From IMG/VR virus record IMGVR_UViG_3300027608_000010: a stretch of DNA of 64,000 nucleotides. One strand, written 5' to 3'. Every line of letters starts with the position of its first letter. The stretch's first letter is position 1. Below are positions 441 through 14,886 of this stretch, one piece after another. This stretch comes from a virus (lineage: Duplodnaviria > Caudoviricetes). The notes beneath the pieces were generated by a model. That model ran no database searches and was not told the DNA's origin. It saw only the letters and a list, made by a program, of their open reading frames with translations. Position numbers and translations under genes: made by a program.

Positions 441-515
441 TGGTCCGGCGTACAGGAATCGAACCCATATTCACGGTGTAGAAGACCGCTGTATTATCCG
501 TTATACTAACGCCGG
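441..515 (-). tRNA. trnR: tRNA-Arg(TCT)
   Basis: Acceptor CCGGCGT/ACGCCGG, anticodon arm GCGGT-CTTCTAC-ACCGT, GGTTCGATTCC T-arm, encoded CCA. Confidence 0.9.
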
Positions 516-524
516 AAAATTTGT

Positions 525-716
525 TTAGGCTAAGGATTGTCTGAAAACTGCTAATTCTGCATCAGTGAGAATTAGTTCCAGTTTGTTTTGTTTTGCTGAT
601 GGGTCTCTTGCCCAATCATATACTGTATAGATATGTACGTAGTTGCTACCCTCTGGTATATCTAACTTGCGTGTTTCACAAAATAGTTTATAACCTGCGT
701 TTTCACTAACTAACAT
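525..716 (-). CDS. hypothetical protein, 63 aa, within the tRNA array
   Basis: ORF with GGAG RBS, filling the gap between tRNA-Asn and tRNA-Arg. Confidence 0.65.
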   Translation of the reverse strand: MLVSENAGYKLFCETRKLDIPEGSNYVHIYTVYDWARDPSAKQNKLELILTDAELAVFRQSLA

Positions 717-735
717 ACTTACTCCATAAAATGTT

Positions 736-811
736 TGGCTCCACAGCCTGGGCTCGAACCAGGGACCAATTGATTAACAGTCAACTACTCTACCGACTGA
801 GCTACTGCGGA
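736..811 (-). tRNA. trnN: tRNA-Asn(GTT)
   Basis: TCCGCAG/CTGTGGA acceptor, GTTGA-CTGTTAA-TCAAT anticodon arm, CCA. Confidence 0.95.
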
Positions 812-821
812 ATGAATTACT

Positions 822-896
822 TGGTGCCGAATGTCTGGTTCGAACAGACGACCTATCGCTTACAAGGCGATTGCACTACCACTGTGCTAATTCGGC
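822..896 (-). tRNA. trnT: tRNA-Thr(TGT)
   Basis: GCCGAAT/ATTCGGC acceptor, ATCGC-CTTGTAA-GCGAT anticodon arm, CCA. Confidence 0.95.
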
Positions 897-914
897 ATAT
901 TTTTATTTAACTGA

Positions 915-957
915 AGTATATCACAGGGAAACTTTTCTGTCAAGTCCCCTGTGATAT
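915..957 (-). promoter_or_regulatory. sigma70-type promoter embedded in an 11-bp inverted repeat
   Basis: TTGACA(938-943)-17 bp-TATACT(915-920); ATATCACAGGG (918-928) and CCCTGTGATAT (947-957) form a perfect inverted repeat. Confidence 0.65.
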
Positions 958-959
958 TT

Positions 960-1520
960 TTACGACAATAAGATTCTACTGTGCTTTGGAACACCTGCAA
1001 GCAAGTAGTCCATTTGATCCGAAAGTATGTTGCGTTGTTGTAGAATCATGTTTTCATAGTGATTTGGTGCGTATGGGATGTACAACAATTCTAGACCACA
1101 TTCTTTTAACAGTTTGTGACCCTTCTTTGCGTTACAGTCCTTACATGCAGTAACCACATTCATCCAAGTGTTTTCACCACCTCGGCTCTTAGGCAGAATG
1201 TGGTCACGACTTAGATTATTATAATTGGGGAAATGTCCACCACAGTATGCACACACATATCGGTCACGACCGAATAGTGTACGGTTGCTTAGTGCAACGT
1301 TGGCATGCTTGTGTGGATTGAAACCATGACCCTTGATAGCAATTATGCTAGTAGTTTCTAGGTAACTCATTTCACCGTCATTTTGTACACCACCACGATA
1401 CTTAGCTACAACTTCTCCTAATGCCCATGCAATTGCATTCTTTGCATGGTAGGTAATTGCGTCATCGTATGAGATCCACTGTCGGGGAACTCCTGAGATA
1501 TCTAGTGCTAGAACAGCCAT
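960..1520 (-). CDS. HNH endonuclease (McrA/HNH_5-like)
   Basis: RDRYVCAYCG, SRDHILPKSRGG and NVVTACKDCNAKKG: Zn-finger plus HNH motif. Confidence 0.92.
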   Translation of the reverse strand: MAVLALDISGVPRQWISYDDAITYHAKNAIAWALGEVVAKYRGGVQNDGEMSYLETTSIIAIKGHGFNPHKHANVALSNRTLFGRDRYVCAYCGGHFPNYNNLSRDHILPKSRGGENTWMNVVTACKDCNAKKGHKLLKECGLELLYIPYAPNHYENMILQQRNILSDQMDYLLAGVPKHSRILLS

Positions 1521-1566
1521 TTTCTACTCCTTTGTTGCTATTGTCACTATAACTATTTAACTAGTT

Positions 1567-1642
1567 TGGAGGGTCGTAGAGGAATTGAACCCCTGACATC
1601 TTGGTTCGAAGCCAAGTACTCTATCCACTGAGTTAACGACCC
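1567..1642 (-). tRNA. trnR: tRNA-Arg(TCG)
   Basis: GGGTCGT/ACGACCC acceptor, CTTGG-CTTCGAA-CCAAG anticodon arm, CCA. Confidence 0.93.
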
Positions 1643-1645
1643 ATT

Positions 1646-1674
1646 ACTATAACAGATAATTGAATTACTGTCAA
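1646..1674 (-). promoter_or_regulatory. sigma70-type promoter directly upstream of tRNA-Arg(TCG)
   Basis: TTGACA-17 bp-TATAGT ending 3 nt before the tRNA 5' end. Confidence 0.6.
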
Positions 1675-1686
1675 TTATTTGTTGGC

Positions 1687-1717
1687 AAAAGAAATCCCGC
1701 ACTGTGCGGGATTTTTA
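1687..1717 (-). terminator. intrinsic terminator (potentially bidirectional)
   Basis: 10-bp stem AAATCCCGCA/TGCGGGATTT with T-rich tails on both strands, just after the stop of the 1730-2209 ORF. Confidence 0.8.
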
Positions 1718-1729
1718 AATGGTGAAAAA

Positions 1730-2209
1730 TTATTTTTTATAAAGCGGGCCGCGCCGATTATACGCATCCCAATTTTGTCCGTTACTAGTTAAACGATATT
1801 CTTCCCAATTTTCCCAATCAAATGCAGTATCTTCAGGAGCTCTATAATCACAATCTACGATTTCACTGCCTGTTTTGGTTGCTAAAACAGAAGAACTAAA
1901 ATTTTGTAAAAACCAGTCAAGTTGAGATTGATTATAAAATAATACAAATATAATAGCCGAGTCACTACCTACACCCTCAAGATGATGGCTATATATTAAT
2001 CCAGTTTCAGAGACAGCAGCCATAACAATTGGAAATTCAGTTTGATGTGGATTAGCTAGTCCCATATCTACTTGACTTTTATAATATTGTCGATGTCGAT
2101 TAAAATCTTCTATTGTTACGAGTTTTACTCCTTCAGTATTTAAGAAATCCTTATTCAATGATAATGAGGAATAAAGTACTAATTTTTTAGTGTAAATCCA
2201 TTCTTGCAT
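1730..2209 (-). CDS. hypothetical protein, about 159 aa
   Basis: ORF track 1730-2260; the GGAGA RBS favours ATG at 2209 (MQEWIY); no recognised motif. Confidence 0.7.
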   Translation of the reverse strand: MQEWIYTKKLVLYSSLSLNKDFLNTEGVKLVTIEDFNRHRQYYKSQVDMGLANPHQTEFPIVMAAVSETGLIYSHHLEGVGSDSAIIFVLFYNQSQLDWFLQNFSSSVLATKTGSEIVDCDYRAPEDTAFDWENWEEYRLTSNGQNWDAYNRRGPLYKK

Positions 2210-2248
2210 ATAAATTCTCCGTATATTTAATATACTATTTATCTTAAT

Positions 2249-2335
2249 TGGTACCCCCACTGAGATTTGAACTCAGATATCTTTTAAGATGCTCCCTTTT
2301 GAGGAGAGTGACTTTACCAATTTGTCTATAGGGGC
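2249..2335 (-). tRNA. trnL: tRNA-Leu(CAA)
   Basis: CTCTC-CTCAAAA-GGGAG anticodon arm, long variable arm, CCA. Confidence 0.92.
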
Positions 2336-2340
2336 ATTAA

Positions 2341-2416
2341 TGGTACCAAGAGTTGGGATCGAACCAACCACACCCGATTCTTCAGACCGGTGCTCTACCA
2401 ACTGAGCTATCTTGGC
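2341..2416 (-). tRNA. trnF: tRNA-Phe(GAA)
   Basis: GCCAAGA/TCTTGGT acceptor, CCGGT-CTGAAGA-ATCGG anticodon arm, CCA. Confidence 0.95.
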
Positions 2417-2422
2417 ATTGTT

Positions 2423-2498
2423 TGGGGAGTTACACGGGGAACGATCCCGTACTACCAGTTTCACAGACTAGGGTGCGAACCTCTACACTAGTAACTCC
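2423..2498 (-). tRNA. trnH: tRNA-His(GTG)
   Basis: 8-bp acceptor GGAGTTAC/GTAACTCC with encoded G-1, CTAGT-CTGTGAA-ACTGG anticodon arm, CCA. Confidence 0.92.
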
Positions 2499-2510
2499 AT
2501 AGAAAAGAAC

Positions 2511-2564
2511 AGGATGCTTATTTTTCAATTAAAAGTTGAATTTTTTATTTGCTGAACGCATCCT
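2511..2564 (-). ncRNA. mini tRNA-Lys(UUU) anticodon-mimic RNA, copy 1 (putative)
   Basis: AGGATGC-GTTCAGCAAATAAAAAA-TTCAA-CTTTTAA-TTGAA-AAATAA-GCATCCT: 7-bp closing stem, 5-bp stem with a CUUUUAA loop, no D or T arm, no CCA. Confidence 0.6.
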
Positions 2565-2569
2565 AAAAG

Positions 2570-2647
2570 TGGTCTGGGTAGGAGGATTTGAACCTCCAGC
2601 CTCCGAGTTCCAAGCCCGGCCGTCTACCAAGTTGACAATATACCCAG
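2570..2647 (-). tRNA. trnP: tRNA-Pro(TGG)
   Basis: CTGGGTA/TACCCAG acceptor, CCGGG-CTTGGAA-CTCGG anticodon arm, CCA. Confidence 0.94.
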
Positions 2648-2654
2648 TTATTTT

Positions 2655-2746
2655 TGGCGGAAGACAGAGGAGTCGAACCCCATCCCTGTTAAGAGAACCT
2701 GGTTTTCAAGGCCAGTCGGCGGACCATCCCACCTGCATTATCTTCC
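2655..2746 (-). tRNA. trnS: tRNA-Ser(TGA)
   Basis: GGAAGAT/GTCTTCC acceptor, CTTGAAA loop, long variable arm, CCA; C31-A39 mismatch. Confidence 0.92.
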
Positions 2747-2752
2747 ATTGTT

Positions 2753-2827
2753 TGGTGGACCGTAAGAGGATCGAACTCTTACTTCCGAGTTGCAAGCCCG
2801 GTGTGCTCCCATTATCACTAACAGCCC
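2753..2827 (-). tRNA. trnA: tRNA-Ala(TGC)
   Basis: GGGCTGT/ACGGTCC acceptor with the G3:U70 Ala determinant, CTTGCAA loop, CCA. Confidence 0.95.
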
Positions 2828-2837
2828 ATGAATAAGT

Positions 2838-2978
2838 TTTCGGGAACTAATTCGGTGTACACTTGAATTAGTTTGTCTCGTATACAAGAGTTTATCGACC
2901 TTTATAATCTACTGGTGTGTCACACATGCCGCCATGTGCTAGATTACAAGGGACTCAATCATATCGTCTATCCCGAAA
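2838..2978 (-). ncRNA. unidentified multi-branched structured RNA of about 140 nt between tRNA-Ile and tRNA-Ala
   Basis: Closing stem TTTCGGGA/TCCCGAAA; internal helices TGTAATCTA/TAGATTATA, GCACATG/CATGTGT, CTTG/CGAG and AACTAATTC/GAATTAGTT; G:U pairs favour the minus strand. Confidence 0.55.
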
Positions 2979-2980
2979 TT

Positions 2981-3055
2981 TGGTAGCCAATGATGGGAAC
3001 GATCCATCGACCCCCGCCTTATCAAGACGGTGCTCTACCACTGAGCTAATTGGCC
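2981..3055 (-). tRNA. trnI: tRNA-Ile(GAT)
   Basis: GGCCAAT/ATTGGCT acceptor, CCGTC-TTGATAA-GGCGG anticodon arm, CCA. Confidence 0.95.
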
Positions 3056-3063
3056 AAATTGTT

Positions 3064-3139
3064 TGGTAGTTGAGGTCGGACTCGAACCGACGATAGATAC
3101 CGTATGAAGGTATTGCATTAGCCACTATGCTACTCAACC
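3064..3139 (-). tRNA. tRNA with CAT anticodon (elongator Met or lysidine-modified Ile2)
   Basis: GGTTGAG/CTCAACT acceptor, ATACC-TTCATAC-GGTAT anticodon arm, CCA; lacks initiator features (no C1:A72 mismatch, no 3 G-C pairs). Confidence 0.88.
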
Positions 3140-3140
3140 A

Positions 3141-3210
3141 TATAAAAACACATTCTAGGGTAGTCGTACAACATACCCCCAGCCCCGGGAGCCGCGAATG
3201 TGTTTTTATA
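3141..3210 (-). ncRNA. long-stem structured RNA wedged exactly between tRNA-Thr(GGT) and tRNA-CAT
   Basis: Perfect 15-bp inverted repeat TATAAAAACACATTC/GAATGTGTTTTTATA (19 bp including the flanking tRNA ends) around a 40-nt GC-rich core. Confidence 0.55.
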
Positions 3211-3285
3211 TGGTGCTGATGGCGGGATTTGAACCCACGACCTCTTTCTTACCAAGAAAGTACACTACCACTGTGTTACATCAGC
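3211..3285 (-). tRNA. trnT: tRNA-Thr(GGT)
   Basis: GCTGATG acceptor 5' strand, CTTTC-TTGGTAA-GAAAG anticodon arm, CCA. Confidence 0.94.
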
Positions 3286-3289
3286 TAAT

Positions 3290-3366
3290 TGGTGCGACCG
3301 GAGAGATTCGAACTCCCGACTCCTAAGTTCGTAGCCTAGTACTCTATCCAACTGAGTTACGGTCGC
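3290..3366 (-). tRNA. trnR: tRNA-Arg(ACG)
   Basis: GCGACCG/CGGTCGC acceptor, CTAGG-CTACGAA-CTTAG anticodon arm, CCA. Confidence 0.95.
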
Positions 3367-3376
3367 ATTATAAAAC

Positions 3377-3433
3377 AGGATAGCATCTTTTTTCATTAAA
3401 AGTGAAATTGGATTTGTTTGCTGTTGCTATCCT
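3377..3433 (-). ncRNA. mini tRNA-Lys(UUU) anticodon-mimic RNA, copy 2 (putative)
   Basis: AGGATAGC-AACAGCAAACAAATCCAA-TTTCA-CTTTTAA-TGAAA-AAAGAT-GCTATCCT; same architecture as 2511-2564 with different stem sequences. Confidence 0.6.
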
Positions 3434-3438
3434 AAAAC

Positions 3439-3515
3439 TGGCATCCTGTACGGGATTCGAACCCGTGATCTCCTACTTGAAAGGCAAGCGTTCTAGGCCT
3501 CTAAACTAACAGGAT
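3439..3515 (-). tRNA. trnE: tRNA-Glu(TTC)
   Basis: ATCCTGT/ACAGGAT acceptor, CTTGC-CTTTCAA-GTAGG anticodon arm, CCA. Confidence 0.92.
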
Positions 3516-3522
3516 ATAAATT

Positions 3523-3596
3523 TGGCAGAGGGTACTGGGTTCGAACCAGTGATAACAGAGTCAAAGTCTGTGGTGTTACCGCTACACTAACCCCCA
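3523..3596 (-). tRNA. trnQ: tRNA-Gln(TTG)
   Basis: ACAGA-CTTTGAC-TCTGT anticodon arm, GGTTCGAACCC T-arm, CCA. Confidence 0.92.
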
Positions 3597-3660
3597 ACAT
3601 ATTTTTAATAGTCAAGTGCGTCCTTCAACCTTCACAGGGTCTAATTTTTTTCCTCGCACT

Positions 3661-3744
3661 ATGCTATTCTAAAACACACTCACCCGAATGGACATATCCT
3701 GCAAGAGTTCCGCCTACTGTCGGAAGTGTGTTTTAGAATAGCGT
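3661..3744 (-). ncRNA. long-stem structured RNA upstream of the first tRNA
   Basis: 18-20-bp inverted repeat (AT)GCTATTCTAAAACACACT / AGTGTGTTTTAGAATAGC(GT) around a 44-nt core with small hairpins; shares TAAAACAC/TAAAAACAC with the 3141-3210 stem. Confidence 0.5.
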
Positions 3745-3902
3745 GATGTATCTTTCAACATCCACACTATGATAGGGTTGATACCCTACCCAGTGATTTT
3801 AATCTCTACGTTGTCGCCATAGATTTCATCCTACTGTCCGCCCGTTTGTAACATTTTTATAGTGATGTATTCCGGCCCTCGTTGCCTATCAACACTTGTA
3901 TC

Positions 3903-4058
3903 TTAGTTTGTAGCTTTGGCTTTCACCTTAGCATTAAGATACTGTTTAGCTAACTTGATTTTTTGTTCAATCAACTTTCGCTTTTGTTCTTCTGTTAACG
4001 TATGATTCCTTAACCATTCCGTTTTGTCAGAAGAACCGTATTCTATCTTACTATCCAT
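3903..4058 (-). CDS. small basic hypothetical protein, 51 aa (MDSKIEYGSSDKTEWLRNHTLTEEQKRKLIEQKIKLAKQYLNAKVKAKATN)
   Basis: Hand-translated and absent from the ORF track; AAGGA upstream; helical Lys-rich C-terminus; overlaps the 4040-4068 promoter. Confidence 0.4.
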   Translation of the reverse strand: MDSKIEYGSSDKTEWLRNHTLTEEQKRKLIEQKIKLAKQYLNAKVKAKATN

Positions 4059-4068
4059 TTATCGTCAA
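4040..4068 (-). promoter_or_regulatory. sigma70-type early promoter, copy 3
   Basis: TTGACG-17 bp-TAGAAT, same TTGACGATAAA core as 258-286 and 363-391. Confidence 0.6.
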
Positions 4069-4092
4069 TTCCTTTTGTTGTTTTTATGCTAC

Positions 4093-4133
4093 AAAAGCAA
4101 AAACCCCTGAGACTTTTTAGTTTCCCAGGGGTT
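4093..4133 (-). terminator. intrinsic terminator / attenuator hairpin after the leader ORF
   Basis: AACCCCTGGGAAAC-TAAAAA-GTCTCAGGGGTT followed by TTTGCTTTT. Confidence 0.8.
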
Positions 4134-4161
4134 CAAAATAATTTGTTATGATGCTAACTTG

Positions 4162-4302
4162 TTATTCCGTTCCCCGGGGCGTTTGTTCTGTATTATCATT
4201 TGAGCCACGAATACTTGTAGGATATGCTGGTACAAAAGAGGCTAAGGTTATTCTAGACCATAGTCCCATATGTTTCAGCGATTTACAAGTTTTATTCATC
4301 AT
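4162..4302 (-). CDS. putative attenuator leader peptide, 46 aa (MMNKTCKSLKHMGLWSRITLASFVPAYPTSIRGSNDNTEQTPRGTE)
   Basis: Hand-translated; AGGA/GAGA purine tract upstream; contains all 20 amino acids; its last codons (CCCCGGGG) are complementary to the terminator 5' arm. Confidence 0.6.
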   Translation of the reverse strand: MMNKTCKSLKHMGLWSRITLASFVPAYPTSIRGSNDNTEQTPRGTE

Positions 4303-4379
4303 AGTCTCTTATTTAGTCCTGGTTTACAAATTTCTTTTTTTAAGTCGCTTTTCGGCGCTTTTTCTTAATTCATGCATGA

Positions 4380-4408
4380 AGTATACATCAGATTTGATTT
4401 AAAGTCAA
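4380..4408 (-). promoter_or_regulatory. sigma70-type promoter for the leader/tRNA transcript
   Basis: TTGACT-17 bp-TATACT; perfect 12-bp palindrome TTCATGCATGAA (4369-4380) over the start site. Confidence 0.65.
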
Positions 4409-4462
4409 CCTTCTGTTTACCCAATTTATTTAGTGCCATTCGTTTTAGTCATTAAATATATC

Positions 4463-5743
4463 ATGATATTTAATCCCAACGAACACACCGTTGTTTTTCT
4501 TAGCTACGATGAACCCAATTGTGATGAAAATTTTCAACACTTACTGACACTTAGACCAGATGCTCTCAGAGTACATGGTGTCAAGGGTTCTGATACCGCT
4601 CACAAAAAAGTTGCAGAGATATCATTAACTAAGAACGTGATTATAGTCGATGGTGACAATATTGTCAACCGTGATTTCTTCCATACTACTATTGAACTCA
4701 ATGATGATGTTGACCTTAGCACTAGTGTTTTAAGTTTCAGTGGGTTGAACTGTATCAACGGAACAAAATATGGTAACGGTGGCATCAAAGTCTGGCCCAC
4801 TGAACTGATAAAGAACATGCAAACGCATGAAAATAGCCAGAATCTTGAGACCAAAGTAGACTTTCACTTAGAAAATTATCTGCAATTGAATCATGCGGGT
4901 AGTACAGCTATGATTAGCAGTAGCCCAAAACAAGCATGGAGAGCAGGGTTCCGTGATGGTGTCAAACTATGTTTGAACGATAAGGGTGTGATATGCGAAC
5001 TTGATGAGATAGATTGGCGTAACTTTGACAGATTGTGGAACTGGATGCACATAGGGCAAGATGTTGAGAACGGATTATGGGCTATCTATGGTGCTAGGTT
5101 AGGTGTTTATATGACAGTCATCAAACGATTTGATTACACTGAAATAGAAGATTTTGATTACTTAGATAGAATTTTTAATAACGCAATATCATCTGTAAAC
5201 TTGATTGAAAAATGTAATAATTTGGGAAAAGCAATCAATCATATAAAGATAAAAGATATGTTATCGGTTGAACATAGCAAACGATACAAAGAAACAGTTA
5301 GTCCTGTTTATCGTAGCCCTGAACTGTTTTTAAAAGAACCACATAGCAAGGAGTACGACATTGTGTTCATTAGCTATCATGAACCAAACAGTGACTACAA
5401 TTATAAGAAACTATGTGAACGATTCCCGAGAGCAAAAAGAGTTGTTGGGGCAGTTGGATCACATCAAACATATATTCAGGCTGCTAAACTATGCTCAACT
5501 GACTATTTTTGGGTAGTAGATGCTAACGCAGAGATAGTAGATGATTTCAATTTTGATTATGTTGTTTCATTTTATGATATACTTAAAGTTAGGATATGGC
5601 GTGCAAGAAACGTTGTCACTGATATGGTATCCGGTTACGGCGGTGTTAAACTATTGCCAAGAACACCGACTATTAGAATGGACAATATTAAAATTGAGCA
5701 TGTCATGGTCGTCAGTAATATAACTAGAAGTGGTTCACAATGA
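4463..5743 (+). CDS. tandem GT-A-like glycosyltransferase-fold protein (two internal repeats)
   Basis: Two copies of VF(L/I)SY(D/H)EPN...RV.G..GS...VVD(G/A)(D/N) with a DxD-like motif and a YGxGG(I/V)K motif; the second copy ends early; ATG 4463 follows TAAATA. Confidence 0.6.
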   Translation: MIFNPNEHTVVFLSYDEPNCDENFQHLLTLRPDALRVHGVKGSDTAHKKVAEISLTKNVIIVDGDNIVNRDFFHTTIELNDDVDLSTSVLSFSGLNCINGTKYGNGGIKVWPTELIKNMQTHENSQNLETKVDFHLENYLQLNHAGSTAMISSSPKQAWRAGFRDGVKLCLNDKGVICELDEIDWRNFDRLWNWMHIGQDVENGLWAIYGARLGVYMTVIKRFDYTEIEDFDYLDRIFNNAISSVNLIEKCNNLGKAINHIKIKDMLSVEHSKRYKETVSPVYRSPELFLKEPHSKEYDIVFISYHEPNSDYNYKKLCERFPRAKRVVGAVGSHQTYIQAAKLCSTDYFWVVDANAEIVDDFNFDYVVSFYDILKVRIWRARNVVTDMVSGYGGVKLLPRTPTIRMDNIKIEHVMVVSNITRSGSQ

Positions 5744-6714
5744 CAGATTTTACATCAATACCCTGGACCAAGATTGTTAAGTTTGGTCAAGCAACTATGC
5801 TTGATAAGAATCTATTCTCTATCAGTTGGATACTAGGAAGATTCTGTAATTACAAATGTAGTTACTGTTGGCCCTATGCTAACACACAAATACCCGATCA
5901 TCAAGAACTAGAAGTCTATCTAAAGACAATGGACAACATCAGAATGCAAGCCGCCGGTAATGGATACACAAAGTTTCATTGGTCATTCAGTGGTGGTGAA
6001 CCTACAGCATACAAACACTTCTTAGTGTTAGCAGAACGTACATTGTATGATAGTATACACATGACTACTAATCTAAGTCCCGGCATTCAATGGTGGGAAC
6101 GATGGTTGAAGGCAACTGAATTTAGTAGACGCCGTAGTATTACTGCTAGCTTTCACCATGAGTTTGCAGATGAAAAGGAGTTTGGTGATAAGATATTGTT
6201 CTTGAACCAAAATGATGTATTTGTAACAGTCAATCAAGTAATGGTTCCAGAACAGTTTATGAATCTATATATTAGATGTAAGCGATTTAGTGAACGGGGA
6301 ATTAATGTTACATTAAAGCCACAGAGTGACCCAACTGCTAGTAAAGTAGTTGACGGATACACCGAAGATATGATACAATTGATGAGAAGAGGATTCCCGC
6401 AACATGTTAGGGAAGAAGAATTGTTACAAGTAAAATTAATAGACAATGAAGATAAAGTTTGGCACTTAGACCAAGCTGAACGATTCAATGCATTTGGCTT
6501 TAATAAGTTTGAAGGCTGGATGTGTAACAGTGGCTATCAAGGTATTGTTATACGTGAGAATGAAGTTAAACGTAGTTATAGTTGTCATGATCAAAGACTG
6601 GGAACACTAAGTGAGGGGTTTACTATTTTTGATAAGCCTACAATTTGTACTACCCCAAGCTGTGTTAGCAGTGCTGATAGCAAGATACCAAAAATTAAAT
6701 TAGGAAAAATCTAA
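5740..6714 (+). CDS. radical SAM protein with C-terminal twitch/SPASM-like Cys domain
   Basis: CNYKCSYC, FSGGEP, C-terminal CNSG...SC...CTTPSC. Confidence 0.92.
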   Translation: MTDFTSIPWTKIVKFGQATMLDKNLFSISWILGRFCNYKCSYCWPYANTQIPDHQELEVYLKTMDNIRMQAAGNGYTKFHWSFSGGEPTAYKHFLVLAERTLYDSIHMTTNLSPGIQWWERWLKATEFSRRRSITASFHHEFADEKEFGDKILFLNQNDVFVTVNQVMVPEQFMNLYIRCKRFSERGINVTLKPQSDPTASKVVDGYTEDMIQLMRRGFPQHVREEELLQVKLIDNEDKVWHLDQAERFNAFGFNKFEGWMCNSGYQGIVIRENEVKRSYSCHDQRLGTLSEGFTIFDKPTICTTPSCVSSADSKIPKIKLGKI

Positions 6715-8027
6715 TGGGGATGTTAAACACTATTAGAAGTTTTATTCGTAAACAACAAGCACTAAGAGTAATACGAAAAAAGAAAAACTCAAAAGAATTA
6801 TCACCCAAAGATGTAATATGTGCAGTACCTTGGATGCATCTAGCATTTGAACCTGATGGTAAAATTGTACCATGTTGTCTGACTAGTCCTTATAATTATT
6901 ATGCAGGAGATCTCACTACCGAACCAATTGAAAAGATTTGGAATAGCGATAACATGAAGTTGTTACGTAAAGAGATGATGGAAGGTCGTGAACCTAATAT
7001 ATGTTCTACGTGTTTCAACCAAGAAAGAGTTACTGGTGAGAGTTCCCGCATATTTCATAATAACGATTTTAAGAGTGTATTAAAAAACATACCAATCATT
7101 ACTGAAGCCGACGGAACCTGTAACAAAATGGAATTGAAATACTGGGACTTTCGTTTCAGTAATCTATGTAACATGAAGTGTCGTAGTTGTGGCCCAAGAT
7201 TTAGTTCTGCTTGGGTACCCGATGCTAAAAAGCTAGGTTGGATTTCAAATCAAGAAAAAGTTTGGAATATTGAATCCGTTAATAATATGTCAAATTTTGA
7301 TTTCCTAAAAGATCAGGTTAAACATGTTGAACGAGTTTATTTTGCAGGTGGTGAACCCTTAATCATGCCAGAACATTGGCAAATACTTGATATGTTGATT
7401 GAGAATAAGCGCACTGATACATATATTTCATACAATACAAATGCATCTACTCTTACTTATGGCAAAAAGAATGCGTTAGATTATTGGAAGTTATGGAAAC
7501 CCGGTAAGGTTGAAGTTTGGACAAGTATTGATGAGATAGGTGAAAGAGCCGAGCTATTACGTTCAGGAACTGTTTGGCATAAAGTTGAAGATAATTTAAA
7601 ACAAATGGCAGCACTGGACAACATTGTAGTTCGCCCCGGAATCACTGTTGGTGCTTGGAATGTATTCAGACTCCCTGAAATCATTGAGCATTTAGTAAAT
7701 ATAGGTGTAATTACTAGTAAGCACAATCATCAAAATTTCTTTATCAATCTATTACAGTTTCCAGAACACTATCATGTAAGTATTCTTCCGGATCATTTCC
7801 GCAAAACAACATTAGGAAAATTGAAGACTTTCATTAAAGAGTTTAATGCAAAACATAAAACATCTATCGACAACCGTTTCACTCATATCATACACGAATT
7901 AGAAAAACCTCATAGTATGAAAAATCGTTTGAAATTTATAGTAATTTCTAACAGTATAGATAAAGTAAGAGAAGAAAATATATTCAACATGATACCAGAA
8001 CTTCAAATTTTAAAGGAACTAAAATGA
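6714..8027 (+). CDS. radical SAM protein with N-terminal twitch/SPASM domain
   Basis: CAVPW...PCC...CSTC, then CNMKCRSC and FAGGEP. Confidence 0.92.
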   Translation: MGMLNTIRSFIRKQQALRVIRKKKNSKELSPKDVICAVPWMHLAFEPDGKIVPCCLTSPYNYYAGDLTTEPIEKIWNSDNMKLLRKEMMEGREPNICSTCFNQERVTGESSRIFHNNDFKSVLKNIPIITEADGTCNKMELKYWDFRFSNLCNMKCRSCGPRFSSAWVPDAKKLGWISNQEKVWNIESVNNMSNFDFLKDQVKHVERVYFAGGEPLIMPEHWQILDMLIENKRTDTYISYNTNASTLTYGKKNALDYWKLWKPGKVEVWTSIDEIGERAELLRSGTVWHKVEDNLKQMAALDNIVVRPGITVGAWNVFRLPEIIEHLVNIGVITSKHNHQNFFINLLQFPEHYHVSILPDHFRKTTLGKLKTFIKEFNAKHKTSIDNRFTHIIHELEKPHSMKNRLKFIVISNSIDKVREENIFNMIPELQILKELK

Positions 8028-8818
8028 CACAAAGAATTTTAATTATGGGACTACCTGGATCAGGTAAAACTACATTAGCACAAGAATTGCAAAAACAATT
8101 ACAAAATGCTAACAAATTAGTAGGTTGGTTAAATGCTGACGAAATCCGTGAACAGTACAATGACTGGGATTTTTCAGAGTCAGGACGCATTCGCCAAGCA
8201 AAAAGAATGCGTAAATTAGCCGACAAACTTACTGCATATGATTATATGATTGCTGACTTTGTAGCACCATTAGTAGAAATGCGTAATCTATATAAAGCAG
8301 ATTGGACTATTTGGGTAGATACTATCCGTGAAGGTCGTTATGCAGATACCAATGCTATGTTTGTAGAACCCGAAGTATATGATTTCCGTATCACTGAACA
8401 AAATTGTGAGAAATGGGCTGAATTTATTACAGATCACATTGTTGAAAATCGCAGACGTCCTGTTTTTAATTGGAAAAAAGAAACGGTGCAGATGTTGGGG
8501 CGCTGGCAACCATGGCATGATGGACATCGTGCATTATTTGATAAACTGATACAACGTACTGGACAAGTTGTCATACAAATTCGTGATGTACAGGGTTGGC
8601 AAGGCAGTAATCCATTTGAAATTAACCAAGTTACTAAGTTTATTCGTAGAGATTTAGATCCAATATATCAAGGACAATATGAAATACAAGTAGTACCTAA
8701 TATTGTTCACATTGGATGGGGTCGTGGAGTTGGATATACCTCGGGCGAAGAGACATTTGATGATGCTGTTACGGATATTAGTGCTACAAAAATACGCAAG
8801 GAATTAGGCCTTGAATGA
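8024..8818 (+). CDS. adenylyl-sulfate-kinase-like P-loop kinase fused to an HxGH nucleotidyltransferase
   Basis: GLPGSGKT P-loop, LNADEIR, IADFVAP (CysC-like); C-terminal MLGRWQPWHDGH and ISATKIR. Confidence 0.8.
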   Translation: MTQRILIMGLPGSGKTTLAQELQKQLQNANKLVGWLNADEIREQYNDWDFSESGRIRQAKRMRKLADKLTAYDYMIADFVAPLVEMRNLYKADWTIWVDTIREGRYADTNAMFVEPEVYDFRITEQNCEKWAEFITDHIVENRRRPVFNWKKETVQMLGRWQPWHDGHRALFDKLIQRTGQVVIQIRDVQGWQGSNPFEINQVTKFIRRDLDPIYQGQYEIQVVPNIVHIGWGRGVGYTSGEETFDDAVTDISATKIRKELGLE

Positions 8819-8859
8819 CAATAAGATACACTGAGAAAAACATCTGATAAGTAATTAAT

Positions 8860-9483
8860 ATGAAAATTGATACTGAACATTTACATTTTTGGATGCAGGC
8901 TATACGCCAAAGTCCTGATCCCATGCGTACACTTGATGGATTTTGGAGTGGGCAACTCAAAAGTAAAGAATGGTTAATTGAAAAATTAGAACCATATGTT
9001 CATAAGCCATCTTTCATTGAGATACACGGTGGCTGGTTAGGAATATTATCTAGTATGATATTCCAAAGTAATATTCCAGTAACTCAAATTTGGAGTACTG
9101 ATATTGATCCGGCATGTGAACCAATAGCATCAATGATGAACAAACAAGAAGAAATGGTCGGTAGATTCAAAGCTATTACCGCAGACATGTGCCATCTTTC
9201 TTATTTGCGTCAACAAGAAAACGAATGGTCTGTAGGTGACATAATTATTAACACTAGTTGCGAACATTTAACACAAGCACAATATGATTTTTGGTTGACT
9301 CAATTGCCTAAAACAGCATTGGTAGTAGTGCAGAGTAACAACTATGATCTACCAGAACATGTTCGTACCGCAAAAACATTAGCAGAATTTAAAGAACAAA
9401 GTAAGATGAATGCAATGTGGTCTGGTTCACTAACAACACCACTATATGAACGTTGGATGATTATAGGATATAAGAATGTTTAG
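8860..9483 (+). CDS. class I SAM-dependent methyltransferase-like protein
   Basis: IEIHGGWLG motif I, WSTDIDP, ITADM, IINTSCEH. Confidence 0.6.
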   Translation: MKIDTEHLHFWMQAIRQSPDPMRTLDGFWSGQLKSKEWLIEKLEPYVHKPSFIEIHGGWLGILSSMIFQSNIPVTQIWSTDIDPACEPIASMMNKQEEMVGRFKAITADMCHLSYLRQQENEWSVGDIIINTSCEHLTQAQYDFWLTQLPKTALVVVQSNNYDLPEHVRTAKTLAEFKEQSKMNAMWSGSLTTPLYERWMIIGYKNV

Positions 9484-10567
9484 TTTTGATGAGTTGTCAA
9501 TAATACATATTGAAATTTCAAATAGGTGTCAGGCCTCCTGTCCTATGTGCCCTAGAAATATTCACGGGGGCATTACTAATCCTCTATTACCCATCAATGA
9601 TTGGAAAATAGATGATTTTGTAAATATATTTTCTAAGGAAATACTAGAACAAGTTAATACGGTTAATTTCTGTGGTAACTTTGGGGATCCATTGATGAAC
9701 AATGATCTGATTAAGATGTGTGAATACTTAAAAACTAATGCCCCAAATATAGAAGTATTGATTCACACAAATGGTAGCATGAGGTCTACCATTTGGTGGA
9801 AAACATTGTATCAATCATTACCAAATAAACATAATGTGATTTTTGCCTTAGATGGATTAGAGGATACACATCATTTATACCGCATGAATACCGATTACAA
9901 TCTGATCATCAAAAATGCTAAAACTTTTATTGCTGAAGGTGGAAACGCTGAATGGTGTTTCATTAGATTCAAACATAATGAACATCAGGTTAATGATGTT
10001 GAACAATTATCCAAAGAATTGGGGTTTAAGAAATTCACATTGAAAAACAGTAGACGAATAGGTAAGGGGCAATTGTTTCCAGTAGTTGACTCCTTAGGTA
10101 AAGTTTTATATAACATTGAAACTCCTACTGATAGCGTGATTAAATTTGTTGGTAAAAAAGAATTATCAGGGCATCAACAATGGGAAGATGCCGACAACAT
10201 AAATTGCCTAGCAATTACACACAAAGAATTGTACATTGATGCTCATTATCAACTTAGTCCTTGCTGTATGATAGGAGCGTTCTTGTATACAAATTATGAT
10301 ATTGATTTTCTTAAAAAATTTAACTTGTATCAAGAAGATTCCGTAATTGAGGAGGGTATAAAAATAAAAAATCAAGTATTAGAGTTTCCTCGTCTTAATG
10401 TGTTAGATACGGGTTTAAAGAATATCATTAATACTGAACAATGGCAAACAATGTGGCAGAAAAAATGGAAGGATCGATCAAGTTCTACTTGTATTATAAT
10501 GTGCGGATCATCTAGCCCGTACCTTGGTGTAGATGAACAACGAATTAAGATAAAAACCAATGTTTAA
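9476..10567 (+). CDS. radical SAM/SPASM-like protein (paralog of 10560-11618)
   Basis: CQASCPMC, FCGNFGDP, FALDGLEDTHHLYR, C-terminal SPCC...CIIMC. Confidence 0.92.
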   Translation: MFSFDELSIIHIEISNRCQASCPMCPRNIHGGITNPLLPINDWKIDDFVNIFSKEILEQVNTVNFCGNFGDPLMNNDLIKMCEYLKTNAPNIEVLIHTNGSMRSTIWWKTLYQSLPNKHNVIFALDGLEDTHHLYRMNTDYNLIIKNAKTFIAEGGNAEWCFIRFKHNEHQVNDVEQLSKELGFKKFTLKNSRRIGKGQLFPVVDSLGKVLYNIETPTDSVIKFVGKKELSGHQQWEDADNINCLAITHKELYIDAHYQLSPCCMIGAFLYTNYDIDFLKKFNLYQEDSVIEEGIKIKNQVLEFPRLNVLDTGLKNIINTEQWQTMWQKKWKDRSSSTCIIMCGSSSPYLGVDEQRIKIKTNV

Positions 10568-11618
10568 GTTTAATGTATTAAATCAGTTACATTTAGAAAT
10601 AACCAATAACTGCCAAGCCAGTTGTCCCATGTGTAATAGAAACATTAACGGTGGATTAGATAATCCACTAATCAAAATACAAAATTGGTCTTTGGAAGAT
10701 TTTAAATCCATCATGTCCTTAGAGATACTTCATCAAATTAAAAGTTATTACTTTTGTGGTAACTTTGGTGATCCTATGATGAATAACGACTTAATTGAAA
10801 TGTGTAGTTATTCTAAAACCGTAGCGCCTGAGGTTCATATAAGTATTCACACTAACGGTGGCGCTAGGACTACACAATGGTGGAGTGAATTGGCTATTTC
10901 TCTTCCAAATAATCACAATGTTGTATTTGCCTTAGATGGATTAGAGGATACACACCATTTGTATAGAATCAATACAAAATATGAAACAGTGATTAAAAAT
11001 GCCAAAGCATTCATTGCCGCTGGAGGAATAGCTGAATGGGTATTCATTAGATTCAAACACAATGAGCATCAAGTAGAGAATGCAAGACAGCTTGCAAATG
11101 AAATGGGGTTTTCTAAATTTACTATTAAGAATAGCAGTCGATTTATTTTAGAACCACAAGTTAAGGTAATGAATCGTGATGGAACTTTATCTCATTATAT
11201 AGAACCTGCATCAGATACTCCTTTAAAATTCATTGACAGGAAAACTATAGATTCGTATAAAGACGTATTAGAGCATTCAAAAATAGAATGTAGAGTACAA
11301 AAAAACAAAGAAGTGTATATTGATGCTTATAAAAATTTATATCCATGTTGTTGGGTGTCAAGTGTCCCTTATAGTCACATTCCAAAAGATGGTGCTTCTA
11401 CTGTTAGGACGCATATGTTAGAACAACACCATGAACTAATGAGTAAATTAGGAGATACCAATACGCTTATTCGTTCTGTAAAAGAAATCATAGAAAGTAA
11501 TGAATATCAAAACGTTTGGGATAATTATTGGAACACTAATAAATTAATAGTGTGTGCGAGGACATGTGGGGTGAACACCTCGTTTGCTAAACCTATGGAT
11601 CAAATTGTAAATGAGTGA
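10560..11618 (+). CDS. radical SAM/SPASM-like protein (paralog of 9476-10567)
   Basis: CQASCPMC, FCGNFGDP, YPCC...CARTC. Confidence 0.92.
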   Translation: MFKFNVLNQLHLEITNNCQASCPMCNRNINGGLDNPLIKIQNWSLEDFKSIMSLEILHQIKSYYFCGNFGDPMMNNDLIEMCSYSKTVAPEVHISIHTNGGARTTQWWSELAISLPNNHNVVFALDGLEDTHHLYRINTKYETVIKNAKAFIAAGGIAEWVFIRFKHNEHQVENARQLANEMGFSKFTIKNSSRFILEPQVKVMNRDGTLSHYIEPASDTPLKFIDRKTIDSYKDVLEHSKIECRVQKNKEVYIDAYKNLYPCCWVSSVPYSHIPKDGASTVRTHMLEQHHELMSKLGDTNTLIRSVKEIIESNEYQNVWDNYWNTNKLIVCARTCGVNTSFAKPMDQIVNE

Positions 11619-12996
11619 AAAAATAAAAAATTATATTAAATTAATAGAAGAACGTACAGGATCTCCTACGTTTTGTGCTTTACCCTGGATTCACTTAGCT
11701 ACTCGACCCAACGGTGACGCTAGACTATGTTGTGTTACTAATGCAAGTGGTGCAAGTACAGGAGATCACACTGTGGGTCTGGTGAAGAAAGAGAACGGCA
11801 AACCTGCCAACTTTGGACGTGAAACCCCATTGGAATCATTCAACAATGAATACATGCGTGATGTGCGATTAACTATGCTAGACGGAAAGATTCCTGCTAG
11901 TTGTACTAAATGCTTTGAAGAAGAATCGAACGGCGTAGTAAGTAAACGTCTATGGGAAATGTATGAGTGGAATCGTGATGGTTTAGATTTTAATAAACTC
12001 ATTGATGAGACTGATGAGACTGGTAAAGTGCCACCTATCATTCGTTACTTAGACTTGCGATTAGGACATACATGCAATCTAAAGTGCGTGATGTGTAGCC
12101 CGCATGATAGTAGCAAATGGTTGCAAGACTATGATAAGTTAATAGCTAAAACAAAAAGCACTATAGTTATCAAACAAGTAGAGTTTGACAAGTCTGAATT
12201 CAATAATACTTGGTATGAAAAGCCAGAATTCTGGGACGATATCTTTGAGCAGATTCCAAACATCACACAACTATACTTTGCCGGCGGTGAACCACTAATG
12301 ATTAAAGAACATCGTAGATTCTTGAATGAGATAATCAAGCGAGGATATGCTAAAAATATAAATCTACGTTACAATAGCAATGGCATATTTGTTAATGAAG
12401 ATATCATTAATGTTTGGAGTCAATTCAAACAAGTTAGATATGCATTTAGTATTGATGGAATTTTTGACCGTAATCATTATATTCGGTTTCCCACTAATTG
12501 GGAAGACATTGAACGTAGTTTATGGTTAATGGATTCGGCACCGGACAATATACATTGTGCTATTGCATGTGCAGTGCAAGTGTTTAACGTTAAACATATC
12601 ATTGACTTTGCTAAATGGAAACTATCACAGGGTTTTAAGAAAATCAATAAATTTAAACTAGACGAGTATGAAACCGGTGGCGGAATTATTAATCTACACT
12701 TACTGTATATCCCTACCTTCTTAAGTGCTAGGATTCTACCACAAGAAGATAAAGAGCAGTTAGTAAGAGACTTTGCAGAGTTTAAACAATGGTTATGGGA
12801 TAACTACAGACAAGATGATAACTTCTGGCATGACAATCCCTATGGATGGAAGCGTTGGGAAGGTATCTTAAAATTTATAATGGCCGAAAACCATACTCAT
12901 TTACTTCCTGACTTTAAAGAATATGTAAATAACTTAGATAACATACGAACAACTGATGCAAAAACAATTTTCCCCGAACTAGTAAACATATTATGA
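11611..12996 (+). CDS. radical SAM protein with N-terminal twitch/SPASM domain
   Basis: CALPW...LCC...CTKC, then CNLKCVMC and FAGGEP. Confidence 0.92.
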   Translation: MSEKIKNYIKLIEERTGSPTFCALPWIHLATRPNGDARLCCVTNASGASTGDHTVGLVKKENGKPANFGRETPLESFNNEYMRDVRLTMLDGKIPASCTKCFEEESNGVVSKRLWEMYEWNRDGLDFNKLIDETDETGKVPPIIRYLDLRLGHTCNLKCVMCSPHDSSKWLQDYDKLIAKTKSTIVIKQVEFDKSEFNNTWYEKPEFWDDIFEQIPNITQLYFAGGEPLMIKEHRRFLNEIIKRGYAKNINLRYNSNGIFVNEDIINVWSQFKQVRYAFSIDGIFDRNHYIRFPTNWEDIERSLWLMDSAPDNIHCAIACAVQVFNVKHIIDFAKWKLSQGFKKINKFKLDEYETGGGIINLHLLYIPTFLSARILPQEDKEQLVRDFAEFKQWLWDNYRQDDNFWHDNPYGWKRWEGILKFIMAENHTHLLPDFKEYVNNLDNIRTTDAKTIFPELVNIL

Positions 12997-13997
12997 AAAA
13001 ATTCCCTATAAAAATTATATCTACACTAGAACCCAATGTTCTTCAAGTAAGATTTATACCCACAGATATTTGTAACTATAGTTGCTCATACTGTTTCCCC
13101 GGTTCAGGTAACGTCGGTAAGTATAGATATCCAAAAAACGTTGAAACTATAATTAAGAATTTTCGAATTCTATTTGATGCTTATACTAAAAATCTCAATA
13201 AGACACAATTTCATTTGTTTTTTACCGGTGGGGGAGAACCCACAATGTGGCCTCATATTGAAAGATTTTGTGAAGGAATAAAAGAGAAGCATGATGTTAG
13301 ATTAACTGCAATTACGAATGGCTCAAGAACCATTAGATGGTGGGAAGAAAATTCTAAATTCTTTGATGCAGTGAATATAAGTGTTCACCATGAATTTGCT
13401 GATATTGACCATGTCATTAATGTAGCAGATATGTTACATGGTAGAGGAGTTAAAATGCTTGGCTTAATGTTAATGGATGCTCAACATTGGGATAAATGTG
13501 TTTCACTAGTCGAAAAAATGAAAGATAGCAAGTATCCCTGGATGATTCAGACAAAAGAAATTATTGATGCACCTCTCAGAGGAATGGATGCATACAATGA
13601 AGAACAAATTGCATACGTAAATGCTAGTCTCAAGCGTGTTCCGGATTCTGATTGGATCATTAAAAATTATGATATTCTTAGACCATATGAGAGTGTAGTA
13701 ATGTTCAATGACGATACCTCTTTCCCAGCAAGAGCGCATTCTATTATTGTTAATCGGTGGAACGATTTTGAAGGTTGGAAGTGCAATGTAGCACTAGAAA
13801 CATTATTAATCAATGCTGACGGGTCTGCAACCGGGTCATGTCAAGAACCTGTATTCGGAGATAATATTCCAAATGTATTTTCAGAAACATTTGAACAAGA
13901 CTTTGCACCTATCATTGATTTCAAACCAATCATTTGTCCAAGAAAAACATGCGGATGCCAACCCGAAACACACGTTACGAAATCTTTAGTTTTGTAA
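12993..13997 (+). CDS. radical SAM protein with C-terminal twitch-like domain
   Basis: CNYSCSYC, FTGGGEP, C-terminal CNV...SC...CPRKTCGC. Confidence 0.92.
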   Translation: MKKFPIKIISTLEPNVLQVRFIPTDICNYSCSYCFPGSGNVGKYRYPKNVETIIKNFRILFDAYTKNLNKTQFHLFFTGGGEPTMWPHIERFCEGIKEKHDVRLTAITNGSRTIRWWEENSKFFDAVNISVHHEFADIDHVINVADMLHGRGVKMLGLMLMDAQHWDKCVSLVEKMKDSKYPWMIQTKEIIDAPLRGMDAYNEEQIAYVNASLKRVPDSDWIIKNYDILRPYESVVMFNDDTSFPARAHSIIVNRWNDFEGWKCNVALETLLINADGSATGSCQEPVFGDNIPNVFSETFEQDFAPIIDFKPIICPRKTCGCQPETHVTKSLVL

Positions 13998-14886
13998 TAG
14001 GTATATCAGCAGCGCAAGTACAGAAGTTTCTGTCACACGTGACAGGTTTTGTTGGACTAACAAAGTTACTGTTATATATGTTGCCTAGACTTCCACCTAC
14101 TCTACACGTGGCTCTGTGAACGTCCCCATCCCAGTTAATCATTAGGCTTTCTAGTCCGGCATTGCATGACCAATCTTTGTATTGGTTCATGTGAAGTTTG
14201 ATAACATCATTAGAATGCATTATTGTATCAACATCAATCAAACAATTGCCTTGAACTGTAGCTTCTTGTTCTTTAATCCAATCTAAGTCTTCAGGTGTAT
14301 ATCGCAGGTCATCAAACAAATCAGGATCACCCTCTGTCCAGCGTATTCTTCTGATTGCATAAGGGATGTACCATACTTTACACTTTACAACAATATCTCT
14401 AACTTCGTTCATTTTATTATGTAGGGCCATTATGTTAACCATCAACTTATCTTTAACTTCAATGACACTGGCTATAGTATCTAATATTTTGCTGTAGTCA
14501 TATTCAAAATGGATGCTAAAAACATAATGATCAACACGTTGTTTTGTGTACCAGGCCGCTGTTCTAGTCCCATTAGTTGTTACACTAATCCAACTAACTC
14601 CTGCATCTCTACAGTATTCTATAAGTTCCGAGAAATTAGGATGTACTGTTGGCTCTCCGCCGGTGAAGCTGAGGCGTATGGGTTTATCTAACATCTTTAA
14701 CTTGTCTACCGTTGCTTTGAGTATTGCTATATCAGTGTGTGGACTACTGTTATCATGTATACTACTTGGGCAATAACTACAATCATAGTTACAGCGTTTG
14801 CCTAGATTCCATTCAATCTTAATAGAATCTTGATGTGGCCAGCGACTTGTTATTTTATACATAAATTTTAAACTCCGGGGTAACAT
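13975..14886 (-). CDS. radical SAM protein with C-terminal twitch-like domain
   Basis: CNYDCSYC, FTGGEP, CNAG...TC...CDRNFCTC. Confidence 0.92.
   Translation of the reverse strand: MLPRSLKFMYKITSRWPHQDSIKIEWNLGKRCNYDCSYCPSSIHDNSSPHTDIAILKATVDKLKMLDKPIRLSFTGGEPTVHPNFSELIEYCRDAGVSWISVTTNGTRTAAWYTKQRVDHYVFSIHFEYDYSKILDTIASVIEVKDKLMVNIMALHNKMNEVRDIVVKCKVWYIPYAIRRIRWTEGDPDLFDDLRYTPEDLDWIKEQEATVQGNCLIDVDTIMHSNDVIKLHMNQYKDWSCNAGLESLMINWDGDVHRATCRVGGSLGNIYNSNFVSPTKPVTCDRNFCTCAADIPITKLKIS

Follow-up and report, generated by a model that had tools for sequence, protein, structure and literature searches.

A conserved leader unit with an ORF for all 20 amino acids precedes the tRNA arrays of uncultured freshwater phages and resembles a ribosome-mediated attenuator

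Introduction

The leaders of amino-acid operons, such as trpL, hisL, leuL, thrL, pheL and the ilv leaders, contain a short leader ORF, followed by one intrinsic terminator and an antiterminator built in part from the 5' arm of that terminator; the stop codon of the ORF is placed so that an arriving ribosome favours the terminator. In T-box riboswitches, read-through is gated by tRNA charging; they bind one uncharged tRNA directly, without translation. The toiL uORF of the E. coli topAI-yjhQ operon is reported to sense several classes of ribosome-targeting antibiotics (eLife 2025, PMC12121999). Full-text searches of the literature identified neither an attenuator in front of phage tRNA genes nor a leader peptide containing all 20 amino acids.

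Why phages carry tRNA arrays, and whether these arrays are regulated, is debated; compensation of codon usage and escape from host tRNA-cleaving defences are among the ideas. Here, we analysed one 64,000-nt stretch of DNA (the window; IMG/VR record IMGVR_UViG_3300027608_000010) from a large uncultured lake phage. Sequences with the same gene are up to 224 kb in size, and relatives are up to 367 kb.

Results

Overall layout of the leader unit

The unit is located on the minus strand of the window. From 5' to 3', it is composed of promoter P1, one ~70-nt 5' leader, one 46-codon ORF, the terminator, P2 and ORF2, and the tRNA array. The individual features are as follows:

4380..4408, minus strand: promoter P1, TTGACT-17-TATACT, 10 of 12 consensus matches
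4303..4376, minus strand: 5' untranslated leader, with the near-invariant ACCAGGACTAAATA (4323-4310) and ACTATG (alignments A2, A3 and A4)
4162..4302, minus strand: leader ORF, 46 codons, MMNKTCKSLKHMGLWSRITLASFVPAYPTSIRGSNDNTEQTPRGTE, all 20 amino acids
4162..4179, minus strand: predicted antiterminator 5' strand, CCCCGGGG AA CGGAAUAA, including the stop codon UAA (4164-4162), from the nascent-RNA fold
4145..4158, minus strand: predicted apical hairpin GUUA-GCAUCA-UAAC, in which CAUCAUA (4153-4147) complements the start-codon region UAUGAUG
4124..4141, minus strand: predicted antiterminator 3' strand, UUAUUUUG AA CCCCUGGG; the last 8 nt are the terminator 5' arm
4093..4132, minus strand: intrinsic terminator, stem CCCCUGGGA/UCUCAGGGG (4131-4123, 4112-4104), 10-nt loop, U-tract 4103-4093
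4040..4068, minus strand: promoter P2, TTGACG-17-TAGAAT, 3' of the terminator
3903..4058, minus strand: ORF2, a conserved small protein of 51 aa; its start codon falls within the spacer of P2, ~26 nt 5' of the site where P2 transcripts are predicted to begin
441..3596, minus strand: tRNA array, 15 genes in the window and 25 on a longer contig (L097) of the same phage

The original prediction, made from the window alone, had proposed a TTGACT-17-TATACT promoter, an unannotated 46-codon ORF (4302-4162) with all 20 residues, and a strong intrinsic terminator about 30 nt after its stop codon; as a caveat, it had pointed to an early promoter at 4040-4068, past the terminator. All these elements were recovered. 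The promoter is present at 4408-4380 (minus strand) with 10 of 12 consensus positions, the ORF was found as described, and the terminator is visible as a 9-bp GC-rich stem followed by a U-tract, from which termination is inferred; the second promoter is not only present, it is also conserved. Of 50 distinct relatives, 46 contain a -35/-10 pair at the P1 position; in the remaining four, TTGAC is nearer to the ATG.

In the 5' leader, ACCAGGACTAAATA (4310-4323, minus strand) is unchanged in nearly all members, and its conservation exceeds that of the ORF. In two relatives (L101 and L102) the motif reads ACCAGAGATAAATA, with AGAGA in place of AGGA. The distance between AGGA and the ATG of the leader ORF is 14 nt, which is the longest such spacing among the genes of the window; owing to this distance, the AGGA of ACCAGGACTAAATA may not be a simple ribosome-binding site, and the ribosome-binding signal is unclear. 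No consensus structure of the 5'-UTR was recovered by RNAalifold on MAFFT alignments. Pairing between ACCAGGACTAAATA and the 3' half of the terminator was also considered; it is no better than that of shuffles (p = 0.31) and was rejected. The ORF is in frame in every relative, and its length changes are in-frame as well. The short ORF in the 5' leader, one feature of attenuators, is thus present, with its translation being inferred.

Conservation and genomic context of the unit

The unit is conserved in more than 200 uncultured freshwater phage sequences. The exact 30-nt terminator hairpin, which has one copy in the window (0 expected), was identified in 55 IMG/VR contigs; the flanks of the hairpin are just 66-88% identical to the window, and each of the contigs contains an in-frame ORF of 44-58 codons, the end of which is 19-30 nt away from the hairpin. 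Searching with the peptide profile gave 175 clusters when the cut-off was 90% identity, the sources being metagenomes of lakes and other fresh waters, and 52 representatives at 50% identity; three profile matches (P0123, P0161 and P0162) were long repeat or unrelated proteins and were discarded. Members that were found by the peptide alone, without using the hairpin in the search, have the same layout, with small variants of the hairpin that preserve the stem.

It had been predicted that regions upstream of tRNA arrays in related phages would share a short ORF with all 20 residues, a divergent peptide sequence and covarying antiterminator/terminator pairing. As expected, the ORF heads one tRNA array in 35 of 37 loci; the array begins 300-1100 nt further downstream in the same orientation, and the upstream side is free of tRNA genes. 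For the remaining two loci, the downstream sequence is missing. The composition rule holds in 96% of the family, and the alternative pairing is maintained through compensatory changes, as described below. The peptide sequence is divergent, with identity between sub-families as low as 16-40%; the motifs PSIRG and KH.G.W are conserved.

In 50,697 cultured-phage records, neither a close nor a remote DNA match was found, and tblastn searches with the short- and long-type peptides against 50,697 phage records gave no match. The closest cultured relative of the adjoining 436-aa gene is in Ralstonia phage RsoM2USA, which has no comparable unit beside that gene. Divergent from the leader, positions 5740-16168 of the window encode one APS-kinase-like protein and eight paralogues of the radical SAM type, several of which carry a SPASM domain at the N-terminus. 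The radical SAM cluster recurs in relatives in varying order, and it is often, though not always, divergently upstream of the leader.

The leader peptide contains all 20 amino acids

All 20 residues are present in 156 of the 163 unique family peptides (95.7%), which are 43-59 aa in length. They are also present in 29 of 39 more distant representatives, one of which is only 41 aa long. Compared to the family, random peptides of phage composition contain all 20 residues in only 1.3-6.9% of cases (1.9% for a random 46-mer), and fragments of the real proteins of the phage do so in 2.0% at 46 residues and 6.7% at 57 residues. Even when the site preferences were kept by shuffling within alignment columns, only 36 ± 3% of the peptides retained all 20 residues, with a maximum of 47% in 500 shuffles.

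The rare residues Cys, Trp and His occur in exactly one copy each in ~95% of the members. When the canonical site of one of them is lost, the residue is found elsewhere in the peptide in 37 of 39 cases. Cys was relocated in 14 of 16 losses, to at least six different columns, whereas Trp (12 of 12) and His (11 of 11) were relocated in every case, with three placements each. Among members keeping the canonical residue, a second copy is present in only 2-7% (Fisher p 1e-11 to 1e-15). Since the members are related, the shuffle statistics and the Fisher p-values overstate independence; despite this kinship, at least a dozen distinct relocations were observed, compared to two outright losses. The all-20 composition itself, rather than accidental inheritance, appears to be under selection in these sequences. 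Because this signal is at the amino-acid level, it also argues for translation of the ORF.

The leader ORF contains no tandem codons for any one amino acid, and most residues are present once or a few times. Its codons had been described as unusually varied; indeed, the ORF uses 35 distinct codons, compared to the 31.1 ± 2.0 expected for its peptide under the codon usage of the window. Codon variety is above expectation in 98% of the members (mean z = +2.3), and this excess may come in part from the GC-rich pairing segments. As judged by eye, some of the leader codons can be read by the array tRNAs and some cannot, including Gly, Val and several Leu and Ser codons.

The dN/dS of the leader ORF is 0.45-0.65, and the differences at the three codon positions are 0.365, 0.346 and 0.447, respectively. 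Synonymous sites are nearly frozen in AGT ATT CGC GGC (S-I-R-G) and, in the long type, in TTC ATA GAA GGA; PSIRG, KH.G.W and FIEG are conserved beyond the need of a pure composition rule. As far as can be judged from these patterns, the peptide cannot vary freely, since PSIRG and KH.G.W are kept, partly via constraint at the nucleotide level; constraint is weak on the peptide and strong on the RNA. AlphaFold2 gave no confident fold for the leader peptide (pLDDT 58, pTM 0.16), and neither the leader peptide nor ORF2 belongs to any Pfam or PHROG family.

The terminator and the competing antiterminator

The terminator hairpin ACCCCTGGGAAACTAAAAAGTCTCAGGGGT (4132-4103) begins 30 nt past the stop codon; it contains 9 bp, has a predicted energy of ~-16.5 kcal/mol and is followed by TTTTTGCTTTT. 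A simple terminator scan overlooked the hairpin, solely owing to its 10-nt loop. In relatives, the variants preserve the stem: one U is replaced by C, turning a G-U pair into a G-C pair; one A and one U are inserted as a pair; and in L102 the stem contains CCC/GGG. At least six T residues lie within 8 nt after the stem in 46 of 53 relatives, and six or seven relatives have only UUU and then CCA past the stem, which is a poor terminator tail. The next feature of attenuators, an intrinsic terminator that separates the leader ORF from the genes behind it, is thus found in the unit; its activity is inferred.

The last codons CCCCGGGG (4179-4172) had been predicted to be complementary to CCCCTGGG (4131-4124) in the 5' arm of the terminator. 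This pairing was confirmed, and it continues inward, where CGGAAUAA (4169-4162), which contains the stop codon, pairs with UUAUUUUG (4141-4134). The antiterminator of the window is composed of CCC.GGGG paired with CCCC.GGG, plus CGGAAUAA paired with UUAUUUUG. When each unit was folded up to the terminator loop, i.e. without the 3' arm, one long imperfect hairpin that uses the whole 5' arm CCCCUGGG was obtained in 53 of 53 units. The 5' strand of this hairpin begins with CCNGGGG and spans the last codons, with the stop codon inside the hairpin or in its apical loop; the 3' strand consists of the spacer and the whole 5' arm of the terminator. The predicted energy of the antiterminator is -18 to -41 kcal/mol, more stable than that of the terminator. 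As in known attenuators, one strand is common to the predicted antiterminator and the terminator, and the antiterminator extends into the 3' end of the ORF.

RNAalifold did not recover the antiterminator across the sub-types, owing to register shifts; for this reason, we mapped per-sequence folds onto the alignments and used one mix-and-match duplex test instead. The inner pairs differ between sub-families (UAGGUAA/UUAUCUA, GGGGUUAGA/UCUAACCCC, GUUUCAUAG/UUAUGAAAC and GGCUUC/GAAGCC). The strands of the inner helix pair at -5.8 kcal/mol with their own partner, compared to -3.7 kcal/mol with the partners of other sub-families (permutation p = 5e-5, 13 sub-families). In the short-type alignment, 85.5% of the cells are paired, compared to 27-56% with slid partners; in the long-type alignment, the corresponding values are 83.6% and 29-53%. 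Two and four compensatory pairs were observed in the short and long types, respectively. L102 shows joint changes in all three strands (ORF end, 5' arm and 3' arm), from GGGG/CCCC/GGGG to GG/CCC/GGG. These compensatory changes in competing structures are what had been predicted for the relatives. The four C's are paired by shuffled upstream sequence in ~37% of trials, and some short-type members have a weak fold z-score of -0.5 to -1.

RNAalifold proposed pairing between UUCGCGGC and GCCCGGGGA, with little covariation, and neither RNAalifold nor the start-region complementarity test revealed a convincing anti-antiterminator (1:2) hairpin. The Rfam scan of 3500-4700 gave only sub-threshold chance matches and no family for the element. 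The only leader-type match was His_leader, with 18 bits under a threshold of 49; no T-box (RF00230) match was found in this region at E up to 10.

P2, ORF2 and the tRNA array

TTGAC[AG]-17/18-TAnnnT is present in ~40 of the 51 distinct relatives listed, some of which lack ORF2. P2 is probably genuine and supplies the tRNA genes with transcripts independent of the switch; since it is conserved past the terminator, control of the tRNA genes by the leader would be only partial. ORF2 follows the terminator in 38 relatives. It is 45-56 aa in length, Lys/Glu-rich, has a dN/dS of 0.45 and carries the motif SDK..DW.KNH.L[ST].EQ..LI..K..R; in the ESM Atlas, only unnamed clusters below 0.9 were found for it. 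Because ORF2 starts upstream of the predicted P2 start site, it should be translatable only from transcripts that pass the terminator. Three relatives (L029, L035 and L067) keep ORF2 and lack the -35 element of P2; in L101, ORF2 begins 16 nt past the U-tract and the sole promoter-like site is inside ORF2. ORF2, and not the tRNAs, is by its predicted position the gene most clearly dependent on read-through, and the placement of its start, together with these relatives, suggests that read-through is built into the design.

In six other relatives (L030, L038, L059, L068, L070 and L075), the U-tract, P2 and ORF2 are replaced, from 3 nt past the terminator stem, by ~110 nt of unrelated sequence (L068 2604-2715). 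The 281 nt up to tRNA-Gln in the ORF2-replaced relatives fold with z = -6.2 compared to shuffles, which suggests a structured RNA. One near-perfect long hairpin, AUUCUAAAACA...UGUUUUAGAAU (3666-3739, minus strand), is located in the interval from ORF2 to the first tRNA, and relatives have it as well (L068 2745-2825); Rfam gave just a chance miRNA-like match, and the hairpin may be a processing site. The tRNA array of the window contains one HNH endonuclease gene (960-1520, minus strand). Copies of this gene in relatives are 72-97% identical and at varying distance from the leader, as expected of a mobile homing gene. ARAGORN identified tRNAs with anticodon UUA, which reads the stop codon UAA, in the arrays of L033 (1311-1383) and L046 (595-686); they are possible suppressor tRNAs.

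The region in RNA libraries

About half of a 901-nt stretch is contained in six lake metatranscriptome runs. The contig in X15 (288 nt) covers 4087-4362; its size is close to that of the P1-to-terminator unit, and it matches the short unit alone. The contig ending at 4362 carries 13 further variant letters, which places its end at ~4375. Two contigs, one in X17 (3819-4351) and one in X18 (4004-4156), extend across the terminator. No contig covers 4371-4472 in X15, X16 or X17, and the contigs of X16 and X17 end at 4350 and 4351, respectively; no DNA run was compared, and the transcript start is not established. The contigs do not show true transcript ends and the libraries may include DNA; depths were not used for ranking regions. 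The region, including the joined leader-ORF2 sequence, is present in RNA libraries of several studies, and nothing more can be concluded from them.

Discussion

Proposed mechanism

We lean towards the reading that the unit is one ribosome-mediated attenuator, which gauges the overall speed of decoding and gates transcription of ORF2 and extra transcription of the tRNAs; we hold this to be somewhat better supported than an even chance would be. The regulatory function is inferred from anatomy, and no experiment underlies the response of the unit to translation or tRNA supply, nor any other part of the regulation. P1 would start one RNA of ~280 nt. In this RNA, the last codons, from CCCCGGGG through the stop codon, would form base pairs with both the spacer and the terminator 5' arm, giving an antiterminator hairpin that is predicted to be more stable than the terminator. 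A ribosome that has completed the ORF and is located on the last codons or the stop codon would hold the 5' strand of the antiterminator open; the terminator would then form and a short leader RNA would be released. With a ribosome held up at any point of the ORF, or with none loaded, the antiterminator would stay, and transcription would read through into ORF2 and the tRNA array, adding to the output of P2 for the tRNAs. Owing to the presence of every amino acid in the ORF, shortage of any family of charged tRNA could slow the ribosome; such shortage may arise from starvation, from mismatch between the codon usage of phage and host, or from host tRNA-cleaving defences.

The geometry is compatible with this scheme. 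Judged by the size of the ribosome footprint, the terminator start, 20-31 nt past the stop codon, is beyond the reach of a ribosome at the stop. As the stop codon is inside the hairpin, a ribosome that terminates there would disrupt the antiterminator and leave the terminator uncovered. Since no convincing anti-antiterminator was identified, the state without translation may be read-through, unlike in trp. The original prediction had read the unit as an attenuator and general sensor of the tRNA pool. Of this reading, the ORF, its all-20 composition and the pairing have gained comparative support; the control of the tRNA genes can be upheld only in part, P2 being conserved. Whether the unit goes further, acting as a pan-amino-acid gauge that raises the regulator-like ORF2 and the phage's own tRNAs when any part of host decoding fails, for example through tRNA-cleaving nucleases, is a tentative proposal, to which we give slightly less than an even chance.

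Alternative explanations

The conserved motifs PSIRG, KH.G.W and FIEG, in a family of more than 200 members, could also belong to an ordinary small-protein gene with its own promoter and plain terminator. Its peptide would act in trans, on host translation, tRNA metabolism or defence, and the stop-codon hairpin would merely stabilise the 3' end of the mRNA. The second promoter after the self-contained unit, as well as the RNA-library contig that matches the short unit alone, would fit such a gene. However, a small protein has no reason to contain all 20 residues within 41-59 aa, with rare residues that relocate, and this one has neither strong conservation (dN/dS 0.45-0.65) nor a confident fold. 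The 3' strand of the antiterminator is exactly the 5' arm of the terminator and co-varies with the ORF end, and ORF2 requires read-through; we consider the small-protein explanation unlikely. The radical SAM genes, some with SPASM domains, that lie divergently beside the ORF in the window and many relatives raise the question whether the peptide is a RiPP-type precursor matured by these enzymes. For such a precursor, constant association with maturase genes would be expected; the constant association is with the tRNA array instead. The ORF is transcribed away from the radical SAM cluster, and neither a radical SAM gene nor a homologue of the 436-aa protein is present in the examined upstream flank of several relatives (e.g. 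L034, L047, L061, L062, L065, L101 and L102), in which the unit is still located before a tRNA array. With only one Cys, no repeated core motif, and the all-20 rule and the terminator switch left unexplained, we give the precursor explanation hardly any weight.

A different type of control, at the level of translation or RNA, is suggested by the complementarity to the start region. One complement of 7-8 nt is present in nearly all units, at +10 after the stop codon or -26 before it, and base pairing between the start region and CAUCAUA in the short type, or UUUCAUAG in the long type, could control translation or stability of the leader; alternatively, the released leader could serve as a small RNA. 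The leader unit maintains ~80% nucleotide identity between phages whose adjoining 436-aa protein is 48% identical, and the fold of the whole leader RNA is more stable than that of shuffles (z = -3.3), both of which would suit an RNA-level switch. Against this, the complementarity of the start region to part of the antiterminator, though conserved, reaches a z of only ~-1 to -3 compared to shuffles; there is neither a consensus 5'-UTR structure nor an Rfam family, and the all-20 rule is not explained by this switch alone. We regard it as improbable, although it could coexist with attenuation; for rnTrpL, a small-RNA role does coexist with attenuation.

Comparison with known systems and significance

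If the tentative proposal of a pan-amino-acid gauge is true, no earlier attenuator would have sensed all amino acids together, and the tRNA array behind the unit would be the first regulated phage tRNA operon. With a cis-acting gauge of global decoding capacity in front of the array, the supply of tRNAs would become regulated and feedback-controlled, and it would offer a direct handle for testing the ideas on why phages carry tRNA genes. The all-20 rule with relocating residues is an unusual, clean evolutionary signature that is usable to search for similar sensors; being compact (~280 nt), the element could also serve as one synthetic reporter of translation stress.

Among known systems, the toiL uORF is the closest idea that we found in the literature. 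As proposed for the unit, downstream expression is induced by ribosomes that stall at various positions of the toiL ORF rather than at a single type of codon. toiL reportedly involves Rho-dependent termination and translation. Different from toiL, the phage unit has an intrinsic terminator, and toiL is not known to follow an all-20 composition rule. T-box riboswitches share with the proposed unit the gating of read-through by tRNA charging; they differ from it in binding the tRNA without translation, whereas the unit has a conserved ORF and no T-box match.

Compared to the leaders of the amino-acid operons, the unit has the same short ORF, intrinsic terminator, antiterminator on the terminator 5' arm and placement of the stop codon. 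By these predicted features, its anatomy is that of a leader-peptide attenuator in the four defining points, and it fails on the regulatory codon run and on the kind of genes controlled. In place of a run of codons for a single amino acid, the conserved trait is the all-20 composition; without a convincing 1:2 hairpin, transcription of an untranslated leader may by default continue instead of ending; the terminator has a second promoter behind it; and the genes downstream encode a small phage protein and tRNAs, not biosynthetic enzymes. The unit would thus extend leader-peptide attenuation from the sensing of one amino acid via repeated codons to the sensing of all amino acids via composition.
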